Assembly (NCBI GenBank): GCA_001002415.1
Contig: LCMB01000001.1
Coordinates: forward strand, 33,999 to 97,998
Reading direction: 5' to 3'
DNA length: 64,000 bases
DNA from: Microgenomates group bacterium GW2011_GWF2_46_18
GTDB lineage: Bacteria; Patescibacteriota; Microgenomatia; UBA1400; UBA12108
The notes beneath the pieces are model-generated. The model saw only the letters and a program-made list of their open reading frames with translations. It did not search any database and was not told the origin of the DNA. The translations under genes and the position numbers were made by a program. Within the stretch, counting starts at the first letter, position 1. Each line of letters opens with the position of its first letter. Positions 8,627-61,260 of this stretch are shown here, piece by piece.

Positions 8627-9910
8627 CTACCTAACAAAACTATCGTAGGAACGGGCAACGGTGTAGGATTGCATTTTGCGGTAGGTTTCGAGAATAACGG
8701 AAACAACAATCAAGAGGCTGGTTCCGCCGACAGTAAAGGTCGAGACACCGGTAGCGCCGGAGATAAGACTAGGGAGAATGGCTATAAGACCCAGAAAAAC
8801 TGCACCGGGAAGAGTGGTTTTGCGCACAATGTTTCCCAGATAGGTGGCGGTGTGGGTACCAGGACGAATACCGGGAATATAGCCACCATTTTTTTTGAGA
8901 GAATCGGCAATTTTGGTTGTATCAAAAACAACGGCAGTGTAAAAGTAGGTAAAGCCGACCACAAGACTAAAATAAATGAGATTATAGGAGAGCGAGGTGG
9001 GGGTAAAGTGGGCGGAAAAATTGGCGGCAACAGAGGCGATATTTGGATTGGGGAGCTTAGCTAAAGCCTGGGCCAACATGGAGGGAGCTAGAACTAAGGC
9101 AATGGCAAAAATAATCGGGATCACTCCGGCGTTATTCAGTTTGATTGGCAAATAGGTCGAGGTAGTTCCACTGGCTCCACCGCGAATGCGACGAGAGTAC
9201 TGAACAGGAATTTGGCGTTTGGCTTCGTCGATGGCAATAATCGCGGCAATGACAGCCAAGCCGGCGACGGCGACGGCCAAAATATTCCAGGGATTGACAG
9301 TCGAGAGGATGGCTTCCGTACGCAAGAAACTAAGGGGAATGCGGCCAACGATACCAGCAAAAATAATCAAGGAGATCCCGTTGCCGAGGCCGTACTCGGT
9401 CAAGTTTTCACCCAGCCACATGAGAAAAATACTGCCGGCGGCCATGGTTGCAAGGAGCGCAAACAGAGCCAAGGGAGAAGTGATGGTGACGAGATTGCCG
9501 GACCTAAGAAGCATGTACATAGCGGCCGACTGTAGGAGTGCTAAAGGAACGGTAATCATGCGGGTGTACTGATTAATTTGTTCACTGCCGCTTTCACCCT
9601 CTTTGGAGAGTTCGGACAGTTTGGGAGAGATCATGGTCATAAGCTGCATAATAATCGAAGCGTTAATGTAGGGATTTAACCCTAAAGCTAAGACGGAAAA
9701 ATTGGCGAGAGTCCCACCAGAAAAAACGTCGAGAAGTGACAAAAGCTGATTGTTGGAAAAAACATCTTTAATCGCTTCGACGTTGACACCAGGAACGGGG
9801 ATATGAGTAATCAGACGGAAAATGGCAAGAATCAAAAGGGTAAAAAGCAACCTCCGCTTAAGTTCGCGGTTGGTTTTAATGGTAGTGATAATTTCACTGA
9901 TCTTGGGCAC
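8627..9910 (-). CDS. secY: preprotein translocase subunit SecY
   Basis: The track ORF extends to 10003, well inside rplO. I prefer the GTG at 9910, preceded by GGTGGAG. Ten-TM SecY-like sequence. The start is uncertain. Confidence 0.9.
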
Positions 9911-53763: not shown

Positions 53764-53772
53764 ATTATAACA
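53764..53772 (-). promoter_or_regulatory. candidate extended -10 promoter (TGTTATAAT)
   Basis: A perfect TGnTATAAT on the minus strand, 26 nt upstream of the terminator hairpin. I see no good -35. Confidence 0.4.
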
Positions 53773-53805: not shown

Positions 53806-54045
53806 CTACTCTAGATTGGAGAAGTCTTCGTCTAAGATTACGGTGTTATTGAGATCGGTTTCGAGACTGGTGGCATCACTACTGGAACTAACCGGCTCGG
53901 TGGACTCGAGGGCGGAGTCAGGAGTCGGGGTAGTTGTGGCAATGGGTGAGCCGGTAGTTGATTCTCCCCCGGAGGGAATTAGGTTAGATAGGGAGCAACC
54001 ACCCAATAAAAGAGCACAAAAGCCGACTAGAATTAGTTTATTCAT
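53806..54045 (-). CDS. small lipoprotein
   Basis: 79 aa. Signal peptide with a lipobox (LLLGGC), then an S/T/P-rich acidic mature part. Confidence 0.6.
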   Translation of the reverse strand: MNKLILVGFCALLLGGCSLSNLIPSGGESTTGSPIATTTPTPDSALESTEPVSSSSDATSLETDLNNTVILDEDFSNLE

Positions 54046-54629
54046 AGGGAGTTCTCCACTCCAGCGCTACTGGCAGGTAGGGCCGGTTTACTAATGGTTT
54101 TAAGTTCCTTGAGGGCATCCTTGAGTAGTTGGTGAGCTTCCTGGAAAAGCTGCTTGGCAGAGAGCGCAAGATCTTTGGCAGCTAAAAGTTCGGTCTTTTG
54201 CTCGGCAAATTTGGCGGGATCGATAGCCTGAAAAGCGGCAATAGCGTCGTTCCCCTTGGCCTTGGCAGCGGTTAATTTGGCTTCGGCAAGATCTAGTTTG
54301 GCTTCAATACTCGTCACGGTTTTTCCGGCAGTGCGCAAAATTTCGAGGCGAGCGCGGAAGCGAATAATGATGTTAGTCAAGCGATCAAAGTAAAACTGAA
54401 AGCGACGAGTTAAACGGTTGGCGTGATTTTCGGCCACCTGGGATCTGATTTGTTGCCGTTCAGCTTGGATTTCTTGAATTTCAGCTTGACGAACTTCCCT
54501 AATTTCATCACGGCGTCTCAGGGGAGAGGCTTCGATCGAAGCGTCTTGGGCGAGAGCGGGGAGGGCAATACTGAAGAAAATGAAGGAGAGTACAAAGAGC
54601 CAAGTAGTTTTTTTGAACGACATAAACAA
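54042..54629 (-). CDS. secreted coiled-coil protein
   Basis: 195 aa. Signal peptide (ALPALAQD) followed by a long helical A/K/E/Q/R-rich sequence. GGAGG SD. Confidence 0.45.
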   Translation of the reverse strand: MFMSFKKTTWLFVLSFIFFSIALPALAQDASIEASPLRRRDEIREVRQAEIQEIQAERQQIRSQVAENHANRLTRRFQFYFDRLTNIIIRFRARLEILRTAGKTVTSIEAKLDLAEAKLTAAKAKGNDAIAAFQAIDPAKFAEQKTELLAAKDLALSAKQLFQEAHQLLKDALKELKTISKPALPASSAGVENSL

Positions 54630-54674
54630 CCTCCTTTTTTCTATAAGTTGGTTATAACAGAATCAAGAGGGATG

Positions 54675-55682
54675 TCAATCTGGCAGAGTAATAGTAAAAG
54701 TGCGAGTTTGTTCGGTTTTATTCCCTCTGGCATCGGTAATTTTGACGCTATAGGTGTGGGTGGTGTTGTGCTCATTGGCAAAACAGTACCTAGTACCAGT
54801 AAAAGCAGTCCAGTCGGCCGAGTCGACTTTTTGTTCGATTTTGAGAGCGGAGACCAAAGTCACATTGTCAGAAATATATTGGGGGAAGAGACAAACTCCG
54901 GTAGTACCCTCGTAAACAGGACCCATCAAAGTAAAGTTGGGAGGGATATTGTCCGCTAGGTTGGTCCAGTCTACCCGAGCCAAGTCGTTGGCATAATTTC
55001 CCTCTTTTAATGAACGGGTGGGATTAAGGACAAGTTTGGCAGTGTGAGCACCGAGTGCGGTCGTGACATCGTGGCACCAGTCATAAATTCTGCCAGCTTC
55101 CATAATGCCAATACTAGAAAAATTATCTTGGACTTCGGTTACATTGTCGAGAGAAAAGGTGTAATTGATCAGCGCGCCGTCTAGTTTTTCGTTGGCAATA
55201 AGATGATAACAGACGGTAACACGAGGAGACCAGCTAGAGGGAAGTTCATCAAATTGACCAGTTTGAATACTACTGTATTCTCGGTTAATTACCCGCCCAG
55301 TGCCGGAGCCATCATCAAAGGTCTGTTTGATGTTGGCACTCGGGTTGCCAAAGCGAAGATCAAGATTTATGGGGGTAAAACTGGGAATGGTCGGAAGAGG
55401 AGATGGTTTGGAGGTGGGTTTAAGGGATGGTTTGAGAGAGGGCTTGGGAGAAGATTTGGGAGAAGCCGAAGGGGTTGCACTCACTGAGGGGGTGGGAGAG
55501 ACGATGGGGGAAGGAGAGGGAGAAGAATTAATTTCTGATTTTAATTTGGTGAGATAGTAAAAACCGCCAAGCCCGCCGGCTAACAGAAAAACGAAGAGAC
55601 TACCTAATAAGAGTGGCCAAAGGGGAAAACTCCGCCTGGGAGGAGTAACGGGGAGGATGGGGGTAGTTTCTAGTTCGGACAT
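54675..55682 (-). CDS. membrane-anchored surface protein with S/P-rich linker and CARDB-like/Ig-like C-terminal region
   Basis: 335 aa. N-terminal TM, then SPSPSPIVSPTPSVSATPSASPKSSPKPSLKPSLKPTSKPSP, then beta-rich domains. GAHTAKLVLNPTRSLKEGNYAND resembles CARDB motifs. Confidence 0.45.
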   Translation of the reverse strand: MSELETTPILPVTPPRRSFPLWPLLLGSLFVFLLAGGLGGFYYLTKLKSEINSSPSPSPIVSPTPSVSATPSASPKSSPKPSLKPSLKPTSKPSPLPTIPSFTPINLDLRFGNPSANIKQTFDDGSGTGRVINREYSSIQTGQFDELPSSWSPRVTVCYHLIANEKLDGALINYTFSLDNVTEVQDNFSSIGIMEAGRIYDWCHDVTTALGAHTAKLVLNPTRSLKEGNYANDLARVDWTNLADNIPPNFTLMGPVYEGTTGVCLFPQYISDNVTLVSALKIEQKVDSADWTAFTGTRYCFANEHNTTHTYSVKITDARGNKTEQTRTFTITLPD

Positions 55683-55690
55683 GACAAGAT

Positions 55691-56569
55691 TTAGTATAGT
55701 TCAGCATGGAGCTGTTGTACAAGCTCTTTGCCACGACGAGATAGTTTGGTGGGGAACATCACCTTAAATTTGATGTAAAGATCACCGCGGCCGCTTCTTT
55801 GCAAGTGTTTGACACCTTTGCCGGAAAGCCGGATGCTAGTGCTGGGCTGAGTAAGCGGACGAACTTTGATAGTTAATTTGCCTTCGAGAGTGGGGATCTC
55901 GGTTTCTCCTCCTTGGATAGCCAGGGTGAACGGAATAGCGTGGAGAAGAAACAGATCATCTCCTTCTCGGCGGAAGGTAGAGTCGGGACGGACATTAAGG
56001 GAAATATCAAACTCGGAATAGCGAATCCTGGTTCCATCACTGGCCCCGGCGGGGATTTTGACAGTGTATTGTTTACCCTGGTGGACAAAGGTTTTTTCCG
56101 CACCGCGGACTGCTTCAAGAAAATCGATGGTTAAACTGTAGTGGGGTTTGGGACGGTAACTTCCGCCAAAAGGATTACTCCCACCAAAGAAAGATTCAAA
56201 AATATTAAAGGGGTCAGAGAAGCCTTGGCCTTGGGTACCACCAAAAAGATCTTCAAAGCCACCACCTGTGGAATAGGTGTAGGTAAAGGGACCAGAACGA
56301 TAACTTTGTCCCCCACCCCCATAGTTACCAAAACCAGAAGAGGGATCGAAAGCGGCATGACCAAATTGATCGAATTTGGCACGTTTATCGGCTGAGCTTA
56401 AAACTTCGTAGGCTTCGTTAATTTCTTTGAATTTGGCTTCGGCACCGGGCTCTTTGTTGCGGTCTGGGTGCCATTTGAGGGCAAGTTTCCGATAGGCACT
56501 TTTGAGTTCAGCGTCGGAGGCCTTCCGGCTGACTCCCAAAACTTCATAATAATCGCGTTTAGAGCTCAT
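55691..56569 (-). CDS. dnaJ: DnaJ-family co-chaperone, class B-like (no zinc-finger domain)
   Basis: 292 aa. J domain with HPD ([13 protein letters not shown]), a G/F-rich region and C-terminal substrate-binding domains. It has no Cys at all, so there is no CxxCxGxG repeat. Confidence 0.87.
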
Positions 56570-56570
56570 G

Positions 56571-56597
56571 GTAGCAATTTTAACACGAGAGTGCTAA
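56571..56597 (-). promoter_or_regulatory. CIRCE-like inverted repeat with embedded extended -10, abutting the dnaJ start
   Basis: Minus strand reads TTAGCACTC-tcgtgttaa-AATTGCTAC-c-ATG. The left arm matches the CIRCE half-site 9/9 and the right arm 6/9. TGTTAAAAT lies inside it, 7 nt before the ATG. Confidence 0.45.
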
Positions 56598-57676
56598 GAA
56601 CCGGAAGCGGAGCGTTCTTCTTGAGTTTTGAACCAGTCGCGCATGGTATTGACCATTAGTCGTTTGAGAATTTCGGGGAAATCGATCTCATAGAGCGAGA
56701 GAATATTGGCGAGAGCAACGTCTAGTTCTTTGGGACCAAAGGCGGGGTTACTATTACTATCGATGAAGTAATAACGACCAGATTGGTCGACGCGAATATC
56801 AAATTTTCCGTAACCACCCATTTTGAGAATATCAAAGGCACGGCGGACTAATTCGTTGAGGGTAGGATCACTGATTTTTTTGTAAGTATAGGTTTCGCCA
56901 CCTTCAACCCATTGTGCATCGAAAGTGACAAATTGCATGGGGTCAGTAGCGTCCGGAAAGACTTTTTCGGCAAGATAGACTTTGGTATTGCCACCCTCTA
57001 GAACAATGGCGGTATATTCGCGGCCGGCAATAAATTCTTCGGCGATAATTGGTTGTTGATAGGTTTTGATCAAAAATTTAATACGGTCACGAAGGTGTTT
57101 TTCGTCAGGAGAGATGGCATCTTGAGTGACTTCGACAGCTCCATGAATTTCGTTAAGTTTGGTAATTAGGGGGAAGCGGAGCTCGGGATTAAGAGGAGTT
57201 GTTGCTGAGGTTAAAAGTTGAGTACGGGGGACAGGAATGCCATGACTAACTAGGAGTTCTTTGACCAAATACTTGTTGTAAGCTAAGGCTTCCCCCAACA
57301 TCCCGGCGCCAGTATAGGGGATATCCATCGCTTCGAGAATCCCGGGGATGGTGGCTGACAAGTATTCTTGACCACTAATAGAGCCAACTAGATTAAAGAT
57401 CATGTCGGGTTTGTCACGGAGAATACTTGACAAAGTTTCGGGACGGCCAGCGTAGAGTTTGGTTTTGATCCCCATTTTCACTAAATAGGTGGCAATGACT
57501 TCAGCTTCGTGAGTAGCATCTTTTTCGGTCAAGTATTGAGTTTCGGTCGGAAAGTATTCTCGTTTGACCTCACTATGGAGGATACCCACAAATTTGGGAA
57601 GGGGAAAACCATTGCCGTTAGTTTTGCTAGTACCTCCAGGTTCGTCGGGTTTTTTGGGGGGTTGATCAGTGGCCAT
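56594..57676 (-). CDS. ATP-grasp ligase, D-Ala-D-Ala-ligase-like paralogue of unknown substrate
   Basis: 360 aa. DMIFNLVGSISGQEY...IPYTGAG, PLITKLNEIHGAVEV, IAEEFIAGREYTAIVL and GKFDIRVD...YFIDSNSNP follow the ATP-grasp order. It lacks the Ddl N-terminal GGxSxE motif. The disordered N-terminus is P/K/G-rich. Confidence 0.75.
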   Translation of the reverse strand: MATDQPPKKPDEPGGTSKTNGNGFPLPKFVGILHSEVKREYFPTETQYLTEKDATHEAEVIATYLVKMGIKTKLYAGRPETLSSILRDKPDMIFNLVGSISGQEYLSATIPGILEAMDIPYTGAGMLGEALAYNKYLVKELLVSHGIPVPRTQLLTSATTPLNPELRFPLITKLNEIHGAVEVTQDAISPDEKHLRDRIKFLIKTYQQPIIAEEFIAGREYTAIVLEGGNTKVYLAEKVFPDATDPMQFVTFDAQWVEGGETYTYKKISDPTLNELVRRAFDILKMGGYGKFDIRVDQSGRYYFIDSNSNPAFGPKELDVALANILSLYEIDFPEILKRLMVNTMRDWFKTQEERSASGS

Positions 57677-58142
57677 ATTGATTCAAGATAACGATCAGAC
57701 GACGAATAGTCAAGTCAGCCGAACTTTTAATATATTCGCCAGGGAAGTCAAACCAGATACGAAAAAATTTGCTGCGGCGCATGGCGCGCACATGGCCAAT
57801 TTCGGGGTCAAGGAGATAGATGTTTTCGGTATCAAGATCAACCACAACCGAGTAATGACCATCATCTTCGGAGAACCAGTCAACAATGACGGGAATTTGA
57901 TCGGTTTTGACTAAACGTTCGAGATCTTCGAAAGTTGAATTGTCTTGAAAGTAACCCTTAAAACCGAGGGACTCGGACGCTTCGATCATGCGAGAGGCAT
58001 CAACACCGACAGCGGGGTCAGCCCGCATTAACTCGGCAAGTTCGGCTTCGGTTTTCTCGACACCATAGTAGGAAAGAACCATCTTGATGGTGGCGGGGCC
58101 ACAGAGACCGGTTTTTTGACGAAAAGGTTTGACTTTGAGCAT
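57666..58142 (-). CDS. stand-alone C39-like papain-fold cysteine peptidase
   Basis: 158 aa. RQKTGLCGPATIKMVLSYYG (Gln9, Cys14), DGHYSVVV (His96) and YLLDP (Asp112) match the C39 catalytic arrangement. It starts 2 nt after the dnaK stop, and its stop overlaps the ATP-grasp start by 11 nt. Confidence 0.75.
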   Translation of the reverse strand: MLKVKPFRQKTGLCGPATIKMVLSYYGVEKTEAELAELMRADPAVGVDASRMIEASESLGFKGYFQDNSTFEDLERLVKTDQIPVIVDWFSEDDGHYSVVVDLDTENIYLLDPEIGHVRAMRRSKFFRIWFDFPGEYIKSSADLTIRRLIVILNQYGH

Positions 58143-58144
58143 AG

Positions 58145-60025
58145 TTATTTTTGCTCGTCAACGACTTCACCCTCTTCGGCCTTGGCCGCGTCTTCGGAGG
58201 CGGCAGTCGGCTCCTCGGCCTTGGATTCACCTTCTTTGGGAGCAGTCTCGGCAGCGGCTTTATACAGGCGTTCGCCGTATTTGGAAAGAGCTTCGGAAGC
58301 CTTTTTAAAAGCTTCGTCGATACTTTCGACAGTTGCATCCTCTTTGTCTTTGGCTTCCTTGAGGGCCTTGACAGAGTCTTCGATTGCGGTTTTCTCATCC
58401 GCCTGAAGTTTGTCCCCGGCTTCCTTGAGGGTTTTTTCGGTTTGGAAGATTAAAGAATCGGCTTCGTTCTTTTTTTCGATCAACTCTTTCTTCTTCTTGT
58501 CTTCTTCGGCGTGGAGTTCGGCCTCTTTTTTCATCTTCTCCACCTCTTCGTCACTCAAATTGGTGGCGTTTTGGATGGTGATTTTTTGTTCTTTGCCGGT
58601 ACCTTTGTCTTTGGCATTGACATGCAAAATACCTGAGGCGTCAATATCGAAGGTAACTTCGATTTGGGGAATTCCGCGCGGAGCGGGGGCAATCCCATCG
58701 AGGATGAAGCGGCCGAGCGATTTGTTGTCGGCGGCCATCGGACGCTCACCTTGCAAGATATTGATTTCAACCTGAGGTTGATTGTCGCTGGCGGTACTAA
58801 AGACCTGGCTCTTGCTGGTCGGGACGGTGGTGTTACGGTCGATTAAAGGAGTGCGAACAGCCCCCATGGTTTCGATACCGAGAGTCAGAGGAGTTACGTC
58901 GAGTAACAGCACGTCGTTGACTTCCCCACCCAAGATACCAGCTTGGATAGCGGCACCAACAGCAACGACTTCGTCGGGGTTTACTCCTTTGTGAGGCTCT
59001 TTGCCGAAGAAGTCTTTGACGGCTTTTTGGACGGCGGGCATTCTGGTCTGACCACCAACCAAAACAACTTCGTCGATATCACTGGTTTTGAGTGTTTTCT
59101 TGATCAAATCATCCACAAGCTCTTCTAGTTTGGAGCGGGTGATTGTCATGGTTAAGTGTTTGGGTTGACCATCACTTCCTTGGGTAATAAAGGGTTGATT
59201 GATCTCAGCGGAAGCCGAACTACTGAGTTCAATTTTGGCTTTTTCGGCGGCATCGCGGATCCGTTGGAGGGCTTGTTTGTCGCTTGCAAGATCGATCCCC
59301 TGATCTTTTTTGAACTCGGAAACGAGGTAGTCTACCAGGCGATGATTAAAATCATCACCTCCTAAAAAGGTATCACCGTTGGTGGCTTTGACTTCGAAAA
59401 CTCCGTCACCGATTTCCAAAACACTAATGTCAAAAGTGCCACCACCCAAATCATAGACAGCAATTTTCCCGACTTTCTTTTTGTCGAGACCGTAGGCTAA
59501 AGCAGCCGCAGTTGGCTCGTTGACGATGCGTTCAACTTTGAGGCCAGCAATTTCTCCGGCTTGTTTGGTAGCCTGGCGTTGGGAGTCGTCGAAGTAGGCA
59601 GGAACGGTGATGACGGCACTATCAACTTTGGTACCCAAATAAGCTTCGGCGTCAGCTTTGGCTTTTTGGAGGATTTTGGCGGAAATTTCTTGGGGAGTAT
59701 AGATTTTGCCATCGACTTTGACGGCAGCGGTGTCATTTTTGCCGCCAACGATTTCATAGGGCACTTTTTTGATCGTGTCTTTGACCATTGCGTCGTCCAA
59801 GTGGCGACCCATCAGGCGCTTGATACTATAGATAGTATTTTTGGAGTTTAAAACCATTTGATTTTTGGCCACTTGACCAACTAAACCTTTAACTGGTTCA
59901 ACAATGCTGGGGATGGTGTTTCCGCCTTCGGCGGAAGGAATAACTTTGGGTTTGCCGCCTTCCATAACAGCCACACAACTGTTGGTAGTACCTAGGTCGA
60001 TTCCGATAGTTTTAGTGTTGGACAT
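58145..60025 (-). CDS. dnaK: chaperone DnaK (Hsp70)
   Basis: 626 aa. [18 protein letters not shown] and [12 protein letters not shown] motifs, with an acidic C-terminus. Confidence 0.98.
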
Positions 60026-60046
60026 AAAATCCTCCTGTAAAAATAT

Positions 60047-60502
60047 TTAATTTGACGAATTAATTTGGCCGTTGCCCACGACCACACGAGCGGGGCGAAG
60101 GACACGACCATTTAGTATATAACCTGGACGAATAACAGAGAGAACCTGATCTTTAACTCCAGGAGCGGTTTCGTGACATTCCATGAGGTTGGGATCGAAA
60201 ACTCCATCCGTTTTGACAACGGTAACCCCTTCTTCGGTCAAGATTTTGTCGAAAGCGGAGAGAATAAGCTCTAGAGATTGGTCCCCGCGTGCGGCGGCTA
60301 AACCCAAATGATCACGGACTTCGAGGAGTTTGGCCAAGAGATTGGCGTTGGCAAATTGGACAATACTGGCGCTATCACGAGCGAAACGTTTCTCAAGATT
60401 GGCATAATCGGCAAGCGCCCGGGCTAGGGAAGATTCTAGATCTTTAACTGATTTGGACGAAGAATGAGTTTTGACGGGTTTAGTTTTCATAGTTAACTCC
60501 AA
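60047..60502 (-). CDS. grpE: nucleotide exchange factor GrpE (short)
   Basis: 151 aa. Coiled-coil plus beta-domain (FDPNLMECHE...GYILNGRVLRPARV). The start may instead be the Met at 60490. Confidence 0.85.
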   Translation of the reverse strand: MELTMKTKPVKTHSSSKSVKDLESSLARALADYANLEKRFARDSASIVQFANANLLAKLLEVRDHLGLAAARGDQSLELILSAFDKILTEEGVTVVKTDGVFDPNLMECHETAPGVKDQVLSVIRPGYILNGRVLRPARVVVGNGQINSSN

Positions 60503-61224
60503 GAAGCGGAGATTTCATCTAATAAATTGCTCATATGTCTAAGCATGGGCATAACGTAGGGATAGTTGAGACGGGCGGGACCAATCACTCCTAAGTGGCC
60601 GTTGATATTGCCAGCACGGAAATCAAGATAGGCCATGGCACAAGGGTAGAGGAACTCATTACCAAATTCGTCACCCAGAATAATATGGAGGGGTTGAGTG
60701 TCTAAAACCCGGCCAAAAATTGCTTCGAGCGCGGCATGGCTCTCGATGATAGAGAGAACTTGGCGGGTAACGTCAATGTCAAAAAATTCGGGAAGGGTTA
60801 AGAGGTTGGCGTAACCAGCTGAGTAGACGGCTCCGTCGCTCGTTGTGGCAAAGCCAATGTTGTTGGTTTTTTCGGAGAGAACGTGAGTGGCTTCACGCAA
60901 GAGAGTATCAATTTTTTGACGGTGATCCCAGATCCGCTCTTTGACCGAAACTTCTTCGGTTACGGGAAGCGTATCTTCTTTCATGAGTTCGGAGATATAG
61001 AGTTTGAGGGCCACGGGAGTTGGGACGCGGCCAGCAGAGGTGTGGGGTTGCTTGAGGTAACCCAAATCTTCAAGCCTCACCATTTCGTTTCTGATGGTGG
61101 CCGGAGAGATACCAAGGTTGTATTTTTTATCGAGAGTGTCACTCCCGACAGCTTCGCCAGTAGTCGTATATTCCTCGACAATGGCTTTGATAATACTGAT
61201 TTGGCGGGGTGATAAAGGTTTCAT
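60493..61224 (-). CDS. hrcA: heat-inducible transcription repressor HrcA (short)
   Basis: The track ORF extends to 61311. I prefer the Met at 61224 (MKPLSPRQISIIKAIVEEY...GEAVGS...SPATIRNEM). wHTH N-terminus. First gene of the hrcA-grpE-dnaK order. Confidence 0.85.
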   Translation of the reverse strand: MKPLSPRQISIIKAIVEEYTTTGEAVGSDTLDKKYNLGISPATIRNEMVRLEDLGYLKQPHTSAGRVPTPVALKLYISELMKEDTLPVTEEVSVKERIWDHRQKIDTLLREATHVLSEKTNNIGFATTSDGAVYSAGYANLLTLPEFFDIDVTRQVLSIIESHAALEAIFGRVLDTQPLHIILGDEFGNEFLYPCAMAYLDFRAGNINGHLGVIGPARLNYPYVMPMLRHMSNLLDEISASWS

Positions 61225-61250
61225 TAGCACTATAATAGCGAGAGTGCTAG
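61224..61250. promoter_or_regulatory. CIRCE operator
   Basis: Plus strand reads TTAGCACTa-N9-GAGTGCTAg, against the consensus TTAGCACTC-N9-GAGTGCTAA. Its last base is the A of the hrcA ATG on the minus strand. Confidence 0.85.
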
Positions 61251-61260
61251 GTCGTGTCAA
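61232..61260 (-). promoter_or_regulatory. sigma70-type promoter of the hrcA operon
   Basis: Minus strand reads TTGACA-17 nt-TATTAT-AGTGCTA-ATG. The -35 begins 4 nt after the lepA stop, and CIRCE overlaps the spacer and the -10. Confidence 0.65.

Follow-up and report, generated by a model that had tools for sequence, protein, structure and literature searches.

A CIRCE-type operator overlapping a predicted leaderless internal promoter of dnaJ in a Microgenomates bacterium

We analysed a 64,000-nucleotide stretch (the window) of contig LCMB01000001.1 from Microgenomates group bacterium GW2011_GWF2_46_18, and in particular an inverted repeat at positions 56571 to 56597 of the minus strand, directly upstream of the chaperone gene dnaJ. 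Sequence comparison shows that this element is a member of a conserved family of operators of the CIRCE type (controlling inverted repeat of chaperone expression) that sits on internal dnaJ promoters in this Microgenomates clade. Our favoured reading, which we consider reasonably probable, is that the element is a working leaderless internal promoter, repressed by HrcA, for dnaJ and the three envelope genes downstream of it. An ultra-small groundwater bacterium probably keeps its dnaJ under heat-shock control in this way, despite the foreign genes that follow dnaK.

The genes of the locus lie on the minus strand in the order lepA, hrcA, grpE, dnaK, C39 peptidase, ATP-grasp ligase, dnaJ, three genes without a Pfam match, and nusA. 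The initial annotation had described a second CIRCE-like element ahead of dnaJ, and the sequence that it quoted can be read off directly on the minus strand. The element is TTAGCACTC-tcgtgttaa-AATTGCTAC, with the left arm at 56597 to 56589, the 9-nt spacer at 56588 to 56580, and the right arm at 56579 to 56571. The CIRCE consensus of the Bacillus subtilis type, known from the dnaK and groE operons, is TTAGCACTC-N9-GAGTGCTAA (PMC545781, PMC3192767). The dnaJ site has the same two-arm layout, with 9-bp arms exactly 9 bp apart; its left arm matches the consensus at all nine positions, and its right arm matches GAGTGCTAA at six of nine. An extended -10 box, TGTTAAAAT, occupies 56585 to 56577 (hexamer TAAAAT at 56582 to 56577), that is, part of the spacer and the first three nucleotides of the right arm. 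It is followed by a 7-nt discriminator, tgctacc (56570 to 56576), which contains no purine-rich Shine-Dalgarno (SD) sequence, and then by the dnaJ ATG (56567 to 56569). The operator, which overlaps the -10-like box, is therefore separated from the ATG of a class I chaperone gene by a single nucleotide, c (56570), and transcription is predicted to start at or beside the A of that ATG. At the other end, the TAG stop codon of the ATP-grasp open reading frame (ORF), at 56596 to 56594, lies within the left arm. From its layout, its gene context and the presence of hrcA, the dnaJ element is a CIRCE/HrcA operator by sequence.

When up to three mismatches were allowed, the CIRCE consensus had two matches in the window, which were exactly the hrcA and dnaJ sites; 0.02 matches were expected. 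The core of the operator in this lineage, TTAGCA-N15-TGCTAA, returned the same two sites with at most one mismatch (0.12 expected). We also trained a position weight matrix (PWM) on the operators upstream of hrcA in 23 related Microgenomates genomes of the candidate phyla radiation (CPR). No dnaJ site was included in the training, and every window position was scored on both strands (about 128,000 positions). The hrcA operator scored 21.9 bits and the dnaJ site 18.2 bits, the second highest score in the window, while the best unrelated position reached 9.5 bits. In 1.6 million positions of related loci, a single site of at least 14 bits was found that was not upstream of hrcA or dnaJ. This exception, in locus L031, is TTACCAGAC-N9-TACTGCCAA on the minus strand, at about plus coordinates 543 to 569, and scores 18.5 bits. 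It is located inside a 700-nt dnaK-dnaJ gap, on the opposite strand.

To place the element among its relatives, 80 loci were retrieved with the DnaJ protein, from Microgenomates (CPR) bins labelled Woesebacteria, Collierbacteria, Roizmanbacteria and similar, and six of the nearest relatives were added (L093 to L098; 78 to 80% DnaJ identity). The usual arrangement in these genomes is lepA-hrcA-grpE-dnaK-dnaJ-...-nusA, with dnaJ beginning a few to about 250 nt after dnaK. The PWM scores upstream of dnaJ were bimodal: 20 of the 80 loci had a site of 14 to 24 bits, the range into which the window's site falls, and the other 60 scored at most 2 bits. Four of the added relatives (L093, L096, L097 and L098) also have the site, which brings the total to 24 related loci. 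In the closest clade (71 to 77% DnaJ identity), 4 to 5.5 kb of unrelated genes stand between dnaK and dnaJ, and dnaJ is preceded by TTAGCACTC-nnnCTTGTn-nnCTGCTnn, 9 nt, TATAAT, 6 to 8 nt, and the ATG. An alignment of the window with 16 relatives showed that TTAGCACTC and TGCT are invariant amid variable flanking and intervening bases. All 16 aligned relatives share an invariant TATAAT, which is missing upstream of the window's dnaJ. The relatives have a -35 box, TTGTCA or TTGTTT, inside the operator spacer; in L002 it is 17 nt from the -10 box. Aligning the dnaJ upstream regions of relatives had been proposed as a check on the initial annotation, and it showed that the operator is conserved but is placed differently with respect to the ATG in the window. 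The proposal of a second CIRCE-like element at dnaJ is supported, at the level of sequence, by the match statistics, the PWM and these sites in relatives.

Among the loci with a measurable dnaK-dnaJ gap, the dnaJ site was found only where the gap was at least 686 nt. Of 14 loci with a gap of at least 600 nt, 10 carry the site; of 49 with a smaller gap, none does (Fisher p = 8e-9, uncorrected for shared ancestry). At least three lineages have a dnaJ site at a separated dnaJ: the Woesebacteria-like close clade, the Collierbacteria-like loci L020, L027 and L033, and L040.

The comparison also revealed the form that the operator takes in this lineage. When hrcA-upstream operators from the whole group are compared, conservation is confined to the six outer bases of either arm, and the inner triplets vary freely, as in TTATCACTC-N9-TACTGCTAA (Collierbacteria-like) and TTAGCAGAG-N9-GATTGCTAA (Roizmanbacteria-like). 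The dnaJ site has one mismatch to the resulting core, as does the hrcA site; its right arm agrees with TGCTAA at five of six positions. The right arm had been called degenerate in the initial annotation. That description does not hold in the sense of simple decay, since the inner three arm bases are unconserved throughout the lineage, and the count of six in nine understates the match because only the core is conserved. Judged by these alignments, the asymmetry of the arms appears to be a trait of the lineage. At hrcA as well as at dnaJ, the operators obtain their higher score on the gene-sense strand. In several Collierbacteria-like genomes, two tandem CIRCE-like sites that overlap by 3 nt were seen upstream of hrcA, TTATCACTC-N9-TACTGCTAA followed by TAATCACTG-N9-GAGTGATAA (L024:2790-2840, L036:2664-2714 and L038:2783-2833, and also L041 to L043 and L048).

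A promoter of similar design to that of dnaJ is found in the same genome. The hrcA promoter and its primary CIRCE (61224 to 61260, minus strand) consist of TTGACA (61260 to 61255), 17 nt, TATTAT (61237 to 61232), 7 nt, and the ATG at 61224. The CIRCE, CTAGCACTC-tcgctatta-TAGTGCTAA (61250 to 61224), covers the -10 box, and its last base is the A of the ATG; it is 4655 nt upstream of the dnaJ ATG. The initial annotation had likened the geometry of the two sites, and the likeness holds to within 2 nt. In both, the -10 box and the discriminator are covered by the CIRCE, 7 nt separate that box from the ATG, and an 11-nt string, TAGCACTCTCG, is common to the two promoters. However, a consensus -35 box and a better right arm are found at hrcA, whereas the dnaJ promoter has the TG extension instead, and its -10 box is displaced by 2 nt relative to the arms.

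A -10-like hexamer (TAnnnT-type, with at least five of six matches to TATAAT) ends exactly 7 nt upstream of 11 of the 1663 ATGs in the window. Four of these 11 are gene starts: lepA (63046), hrcA (61224), dnaJ (56569) and a 592-aa ORF (37694). Among the 24 relatives with a dnaJ site, 20 have a -10 box 6 to 8 nt from the ATG (16 of the first 80 loci and all four of the nearer ones). The distance is 10 nt in L040, and no -10 hexamer was called 5 to 10 nt from the dnaJ ATG in L020, L027 and L033. The relatives' boxes are TATAAT or TGTTA(A/G)AAT, and the stretches from the box to the ATG are mostly pyrimidine-rich and lack an SD-like run. At dnaJ of L097, TGTTAAAAT-N7-ATG is identical to the window, and L093 has TGTTAGAAT-N7-ATG. 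In the window itself, dnaK and grpE have GGAGG or GGAG, and the inserted gene pair uses adjoining or overlapping stop and start codons. The dnaJ gene has neither an SD sequence nor a gene overlap, which fits a transcript that begins at its ATG. The leaderless arrangement without an SD sequence that had been put forward for dnaJ gains support from the position of the relatives' -10 boxes, and the sequence patterns suggest that leaderless starts are common among the operon-first genes of this genome. The lepA gene and the 592-aa ORF, both on the minus strand, have TAAAAT and TATAAT, respectively, 7 nt before the ATG and no SD sequence. A leaderless start of lepA implies an ATG that is 29 codons downstream of the start of the longest ORF.

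We propose the following mechanism. RNA polymerase would use the extended -10 box TGTTAAAAT without a -35 box and would start at or beside the A of the dnaJ ATG, producing a leaderless mRNA for dnaJ and three genes for envelope or secreted proteins. In the absence of stress, HrcA, which is encoded 4.6 kb upstream, would bind TTAGCACTC-N9-AATTGCTAC, cover the -10 box and the start point, and block the dnaJ promoter, as may also happen at the hrcA promoter with its nearly identical layout. Protein-folding stress would inactivate HrcA, and the hrcA and dnaJ promoters would then both fire. In this scenario, dnaJ would be co-regulated with dnaK across the inserted foreign genes. That HrcA binds the dnaJ site, that the promoter is active and starts where predicted, and that stress induces it are what we infer here. 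The winged-helix region of the window's HrcA is intact: residues 2 to 84 align to residues 13 to 95 of Thermotoga maritima HrcA (1STZ; E = 1e-15).

The module at the window's dnaJ is more compact than in any relative. From the left arm to the ATG it is 22 to 33 nt shorter than in every relative, and we distinguished five layouts. In type (i), the commonest, the operator has the -35 box in its spacer and is followed by TATAAT; the window module is 22 nt shorter than this type. Type (ii), in L097 and L093, has the operator, 16 to 17 nt, TGTTA(A/G)AAT, 7 nt, and the ATG, and exceeds the window module by 33 nt. L093 is the closest relative (80% DnaJ identity), and the DnaJ N terminus is common to it and the window. 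In type (iii), represented by L040, the right arm overlaps the -10 box as TGCTAAAAT. Type (iv), in L001, L003 and L095, is TGCTAAAAT-N7-ATG without a left arm, and type (v) is the layout of the window. Relative to the promoter, the operator is at about -49 to -23 in type (i), about -60 to -34 in type (ii), and about -28 to -2 in the window. The element is identical in seven contigs of the same species from other samples (L081, L082 and L088 to L092); L088 has two substitutions just upstream of it. The compressed layout is found in none of the six added near relatives, and no more distant carrier was found in the databases searched.

Two deletion histories fit these sequences. In one, the deletion fell after the right arm, and the former spacer gave rise to the extended -10 box. 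This history is favoured by the TTAGCACTCtc...TGCTAC of L002, L004 and L017, which matches the window, and by MAFFT, which prefers to align the arms. In the other, the deletion took the old spacer and the right arm, and the right arm seen today combines the final three nucleotides of the -10 box with TGCTAC. Here the identity of TGTTAAAAT-N7-ATG with L097 is in favour, and a TGCT at the exact 9-nt spacing within a 7-nt discriminator is estimated to arise by chance about once in 256 cases. A neighbour-joining tree of DnaJ does not separate the two histories, because its best grouping (window, L093 and L018) has 39% bootstrap. Either history requires one functional part to be re-created in register, which suggests that promoter and operator are both under selection in the window's species. 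We regard a wider scenario as less likely than not. The dnaK-dnaJ junction would be a cargo hotspot bounded by an invariant half-site, whose TAG stops incoming genes; in the window's species a deletion of 22 to 33 nt would have occurred, and selection would then have rebuilt the right arm or the -10 box, converging on the layout of the hrcA promoter. If true, this would be a traceable case in which selection for membership of a regulon drove operator and promoter turnover, in a CPR genome that is streamlined and prone to leaderless genes.

Several observations weigh against the HrcA-repressed leaderless promoter. No -35 hexamer is recognisable at the dnaJ promoter, and a consensus promoter scan, which requires one, gave no call. 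The right arm starts with AAT and ends with C rather than A, an uncommon combination. The window layout is unique among the sampled relatives, and the protein search returned no relative between 80% and 100% DnaJ identity. If the right arm is new, it could be a coincidence that leaves HrcA with a half-site. A -10/N7 promoter without an operator precedes dnaJ in L001, L003, L095, L018 and L094; because some relatives have no operator, HrcA control of dnaJ is dispensable in the clade. Finally, our scan found no SD-like motif at the majority of the window's gene starts, which makes the absent SD sequence weak evidence for a leaderless start.

The main alternative, which we regard as unlikely, is a crippled operator on a constitutive promoter. 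Only the left half-site would survive, to which HrcA would no longer bind effectively, TGCTAC would be coincidental, and TGTTAAAAT would still drive a leaderless dnaJ. The gene would be expressed much as it is from the vegetative internal promoter upstream of dnaJ in B. subtilis and Clostridium, which is constitutive and not heat-regulated and for which no CIRCE is described (PMC5727486, PMC2952846). The operator-less promoters of L001, L003, L095 and L018 agree with this alternative, and so does the -10 box with its N7 spacing, which is the same in L097 and nearly so in L093 and favours a deletion of the ancestral spacer and right arm. However, TGCTA is exactly 9 nt from a perfect left arm, and TGCT is absent from the eight other -10/N7 discriminators that we inspected (L001, L003, L018, L093, L095, L097, and lepA and 37694 in the window). 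Moreover, the full site scores within the range of the conserved dnaJ operators, and its layout equals that of the hrcA promoter within 2 nt.

It is less probable still that there is no active promoter at all. The deletion would have destroyed it, and the dnaJ gene would then be expressed only from a long hrcA-grpE-dnaK-C39-ligase-dnaJ transcript, by reinitiation 24 nt past the ligase stop codon, and the CIRCE would be a remnant. The 24-nt intergenic gap contains no terminator-like site, the nearest match on the minus strand being about 180 nt upstream, inside the ATP-grasp gene, and both a -35 box and the canonical TATAAT of most relatives are lacking. Against this view, an exact extended -10 box (TGnTAAAAT) is present at N7, as at other gene starts of the window and at dnaJ in relatives. 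Internal initiation would have no SD sequence to use, unlike at dnaK and grpE, and a remnant would not be expected to hold operator and promoter in register.

CIRCE has been proposed to influence mRNA stability in some bacteria, and an RNA-level role had been suggested for the dnaJ element. The inverted repeat would then act not as a DNA operator but as a hairpin, on stability, processing or translation. The element would be transcribed within any read-through mRNA, but with a leaderless dnaJ most of it would precede the transcript. The structure predicted for the window's copy differs from the CIRCE hairpin and does not surpass shuffled sequences (-7.7 kcal/mol, z = -1.1), and the elements of two relatives fold worse than shuffles (z = +0.6 and +1.2). 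Furthermore, it is the half-site sequence that is conserved and not the pairing, the inner arm bases being unpaired in most relatives. On these folds we rejected the hairpin, which is very improbable. A chance match at the end of a coding region, the least credible explanation, is effectively refuted: a lone TTAGCACTC half-site does occur within an ORF at 9536 to 9544 (0.39 expected per window), but the consensus count for the full site, its outlying PWM score, the equivalent sites kept in 24 related loci and the low background rate all speak against it.

We then considered the gene pair between dnaK and dnaJ. The first gene encodes a C39-family peptidase (57666 to 58142, minus strand) and starts directly after the dnaK stop codon; the second encodes a 360-aa ATP-grasp protein with a Pfam match to the D-Ala-D-Ala ligase C-like family (56594 to 57676, minus strand). 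None of the relatives has this pair between dnaK and dnaJ. Their cargo at the junction differs between lineages and includes upp, NUDIX, HIT, GNAT, alpha/beta-hydrolases, His_Phos, a toxin-antitoxin pair and a MerR regulator. When metagenomes were scanned with the ATP-grasp protein, the matches were to the same species (L081 and L082) and to five other contigs (L083 to L087), in which the ligase is 73 to 75% identical. Four of the five contigs also have the peptidase (68%), and in none is the pair beside dnaJ. In L083 (1-3386) the pair is situated among tRNA genes and adjoins a 320-aa ORF, judged from its sequence to be a putative transposase; a TGATAGAAT-N7-ATG start of its own precedes it. 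The two genes behave like a mobile cassette, possibly with a function in peptide maturation or ligation. Since it is absent from the junction in relatives and found elsewhere, it appears to be mobile cargo that landed upstream of an older module. The initial annotation had the pair inserted upstream of a pre-existing regulatory module. The module is indeed older, and relatives have other cargo in front of it, but it was not left untouched: it is 22 to 33 nt shorter in the window, whose geometry is thus a derived one. The idea that the pair brought its own CIRCE or a site-specific target is unsupported, as the copies in L083 to L087, all among tRNA genes with a transposase-like ORF alongside, have no CIRCE at their end.

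The cargo genes often end inside the operator. In 18 of 25 operator-bearing dnaJ loci, a same-strand ORF that either has 60 aa or more or extends past the contig edge has its stop codon at the TAG within TTAGCACTC, for example in the window and at L004:5952-5954, L012:5952-5954, L097:2442-2444 and L098:2386-2388. At least 10 unrelated C termini end on this TAG, among them upp, a histidine phosphatase, an ORF with a weak TPR_2 match, the ATP-grasp ligase, and unannotated proteins. The invariant operator seems to double as a stop codon for the abutting cargo gene, which a bias towards deletions in streamlined genomes may have brought about.

The CIRCE of B. subtilis dnaK lies within the transcribed leader. 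The window site resembles the B. subtilis type in its 9-N9-9 layout, in a left arm that equals the consensus, in its association with a sigma-70-type promoter of a class I chaperone gene, and in the presence of hrcA in the operon. It differs in the inner bases of the right arm, which are AAT and not GAG, and in the last base, C. It also differs in being internal to the operon and in overlapping the -10 box and the start of a gene predicted to be leaderless. Like the dnaJ promoter of Bacillus and Clostridium, the window promoter is internal to the hrcA-grpE-dnaK-dnaJ cluster and would give a shorter transcript of dnaJ and the downstream genes; unlike it, the window promoter has a CIRCE-type site and a predicted leaderless mRNA. 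In Lactococcus lactis, dnaJ is under HrcA/CIRCE control (PMC3164122, citing van Asseldonk et al. 1993), and the window would be similar in that HrcA acts through a CIRCE in dnaJ's own upstream region. The L. lactis gene is located apart from dnaK; its palindrome is canonical, and its leader carries an SD sequence. The window bacterium belongs to a different phylum, and the L. lactis CIRCE is not known to lie 1 nt from the ATG.

A dnaJ gene under its own CIRCE was already known from L. lactis, and an internal dnaJ promoter from Bacillus. The novelty lies in the phylum of the host, the operator core specific to this lineage, the predicted leaderless layout, and the way in which the module was remodelled following a deletion. 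To our knowledge, gene regulation in the CPR (Patescibacteria) is almost unstudied. In the literature searched, HrcA and Patescibacteria occurred together only in the context of the oral microbiota, and leaderless, Patescibacteria and Shine-Dalgarno were not combined. Nothing is overturned by the element, which is a known kind of switch in compressed form; it adds an uncultured phylum to the known range of HrcA/CIRCE and provides a compact system in which to test how promoters and operators evolve together. The lineage core with its free inner triplets may be used to predict heat-shock regulons in Microgenomates. The relatives provide comparative evidence for -10/N7/ATG leaderless starts at operon-first genes in these genomes. 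The locus may also serve as a worked example of how a private operator would preserve the co-regulation of dnaJ and dnaK when insertions break the operon.

By Pfam and synteny, hrcA, grpE and dnaK (58145 to 61224, minus strand) are the upstream part of the ancestral hrcA-grpE-dnaK-dnaJ operon. The hrcA gene (60493 to 61224; 243 aa) matches the Pfam HrcA families, and grpE (60047 to 60502) and dnaK (58145 to 60025) also have Pfam matches. The window's HrcA has 243 aa where 1STZ has 338, and only the winged-helix region aligns well to that structure. The relatives' HrcA proteins align along nearly the full length of the window's protein (from residues 1 to 4 through residues 238 to 242), so the short HrcA is probably a feature of the whole clade. 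A missing or diverged HrcA domain might be related to the asymmetric operators. No groEL, whose groESL operator could have served as an independent reference from the same genome, is present in the window or in the fetched loci.

The dnaJ gene (55691 to 56569, minus strand) encodes a 292-aa protein with a J domain and a DnaJ C-terminal domain by Pfam, and its N terminus, MSSKRDYY, aligns with the start codons of relatives. The zinc-finger (Cys-rich) domain had no match in this protein, and all close relatives have the same length. The window's DnaJ thus resembles class II (CbpA-like) J-proteins. The three genes 3' of dnaJ (53806 to 55682, minus strand; 335 aa, 193 or 195 aa, and 79 aa) are likely co-transcribed with it, and the order dnaJ-335-195-79-nusA is kept in relatives. 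Pfam gave no match for any of the three. The first has an N-terminal transmembrane anchor, the second a signal peptide and the third a lipobox-like LLGGC, and the label of envelope genes that they had been given is reasonable. Further downstream on the minus strand, TGTTATAAT at 53764 to 53772 precedes by about 100 nt the nusA ATG (53664), which has an SD sequence. A separate promoter with a leader is the probable identity of TGTTATAAT, which would mark the end of the dnaJ transcription unit.

A different arrangement was seen in eight Collierbacteria-like loci in which dnaJ directly follows dnaK (L024, L026, L034, L038, L042, L043, L046 and L048). The dnaK-dnaJ junction there contains a G+C-rich hairpin (for example, caggggctgaaagcgtcagcccctg), then TGATAAAAT or GTTAAAAT, and then about 15 nt to the ATG. 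This junction resembles a terminator joined directly to an internal promoter of dnaJ that lacks a CIRCE.

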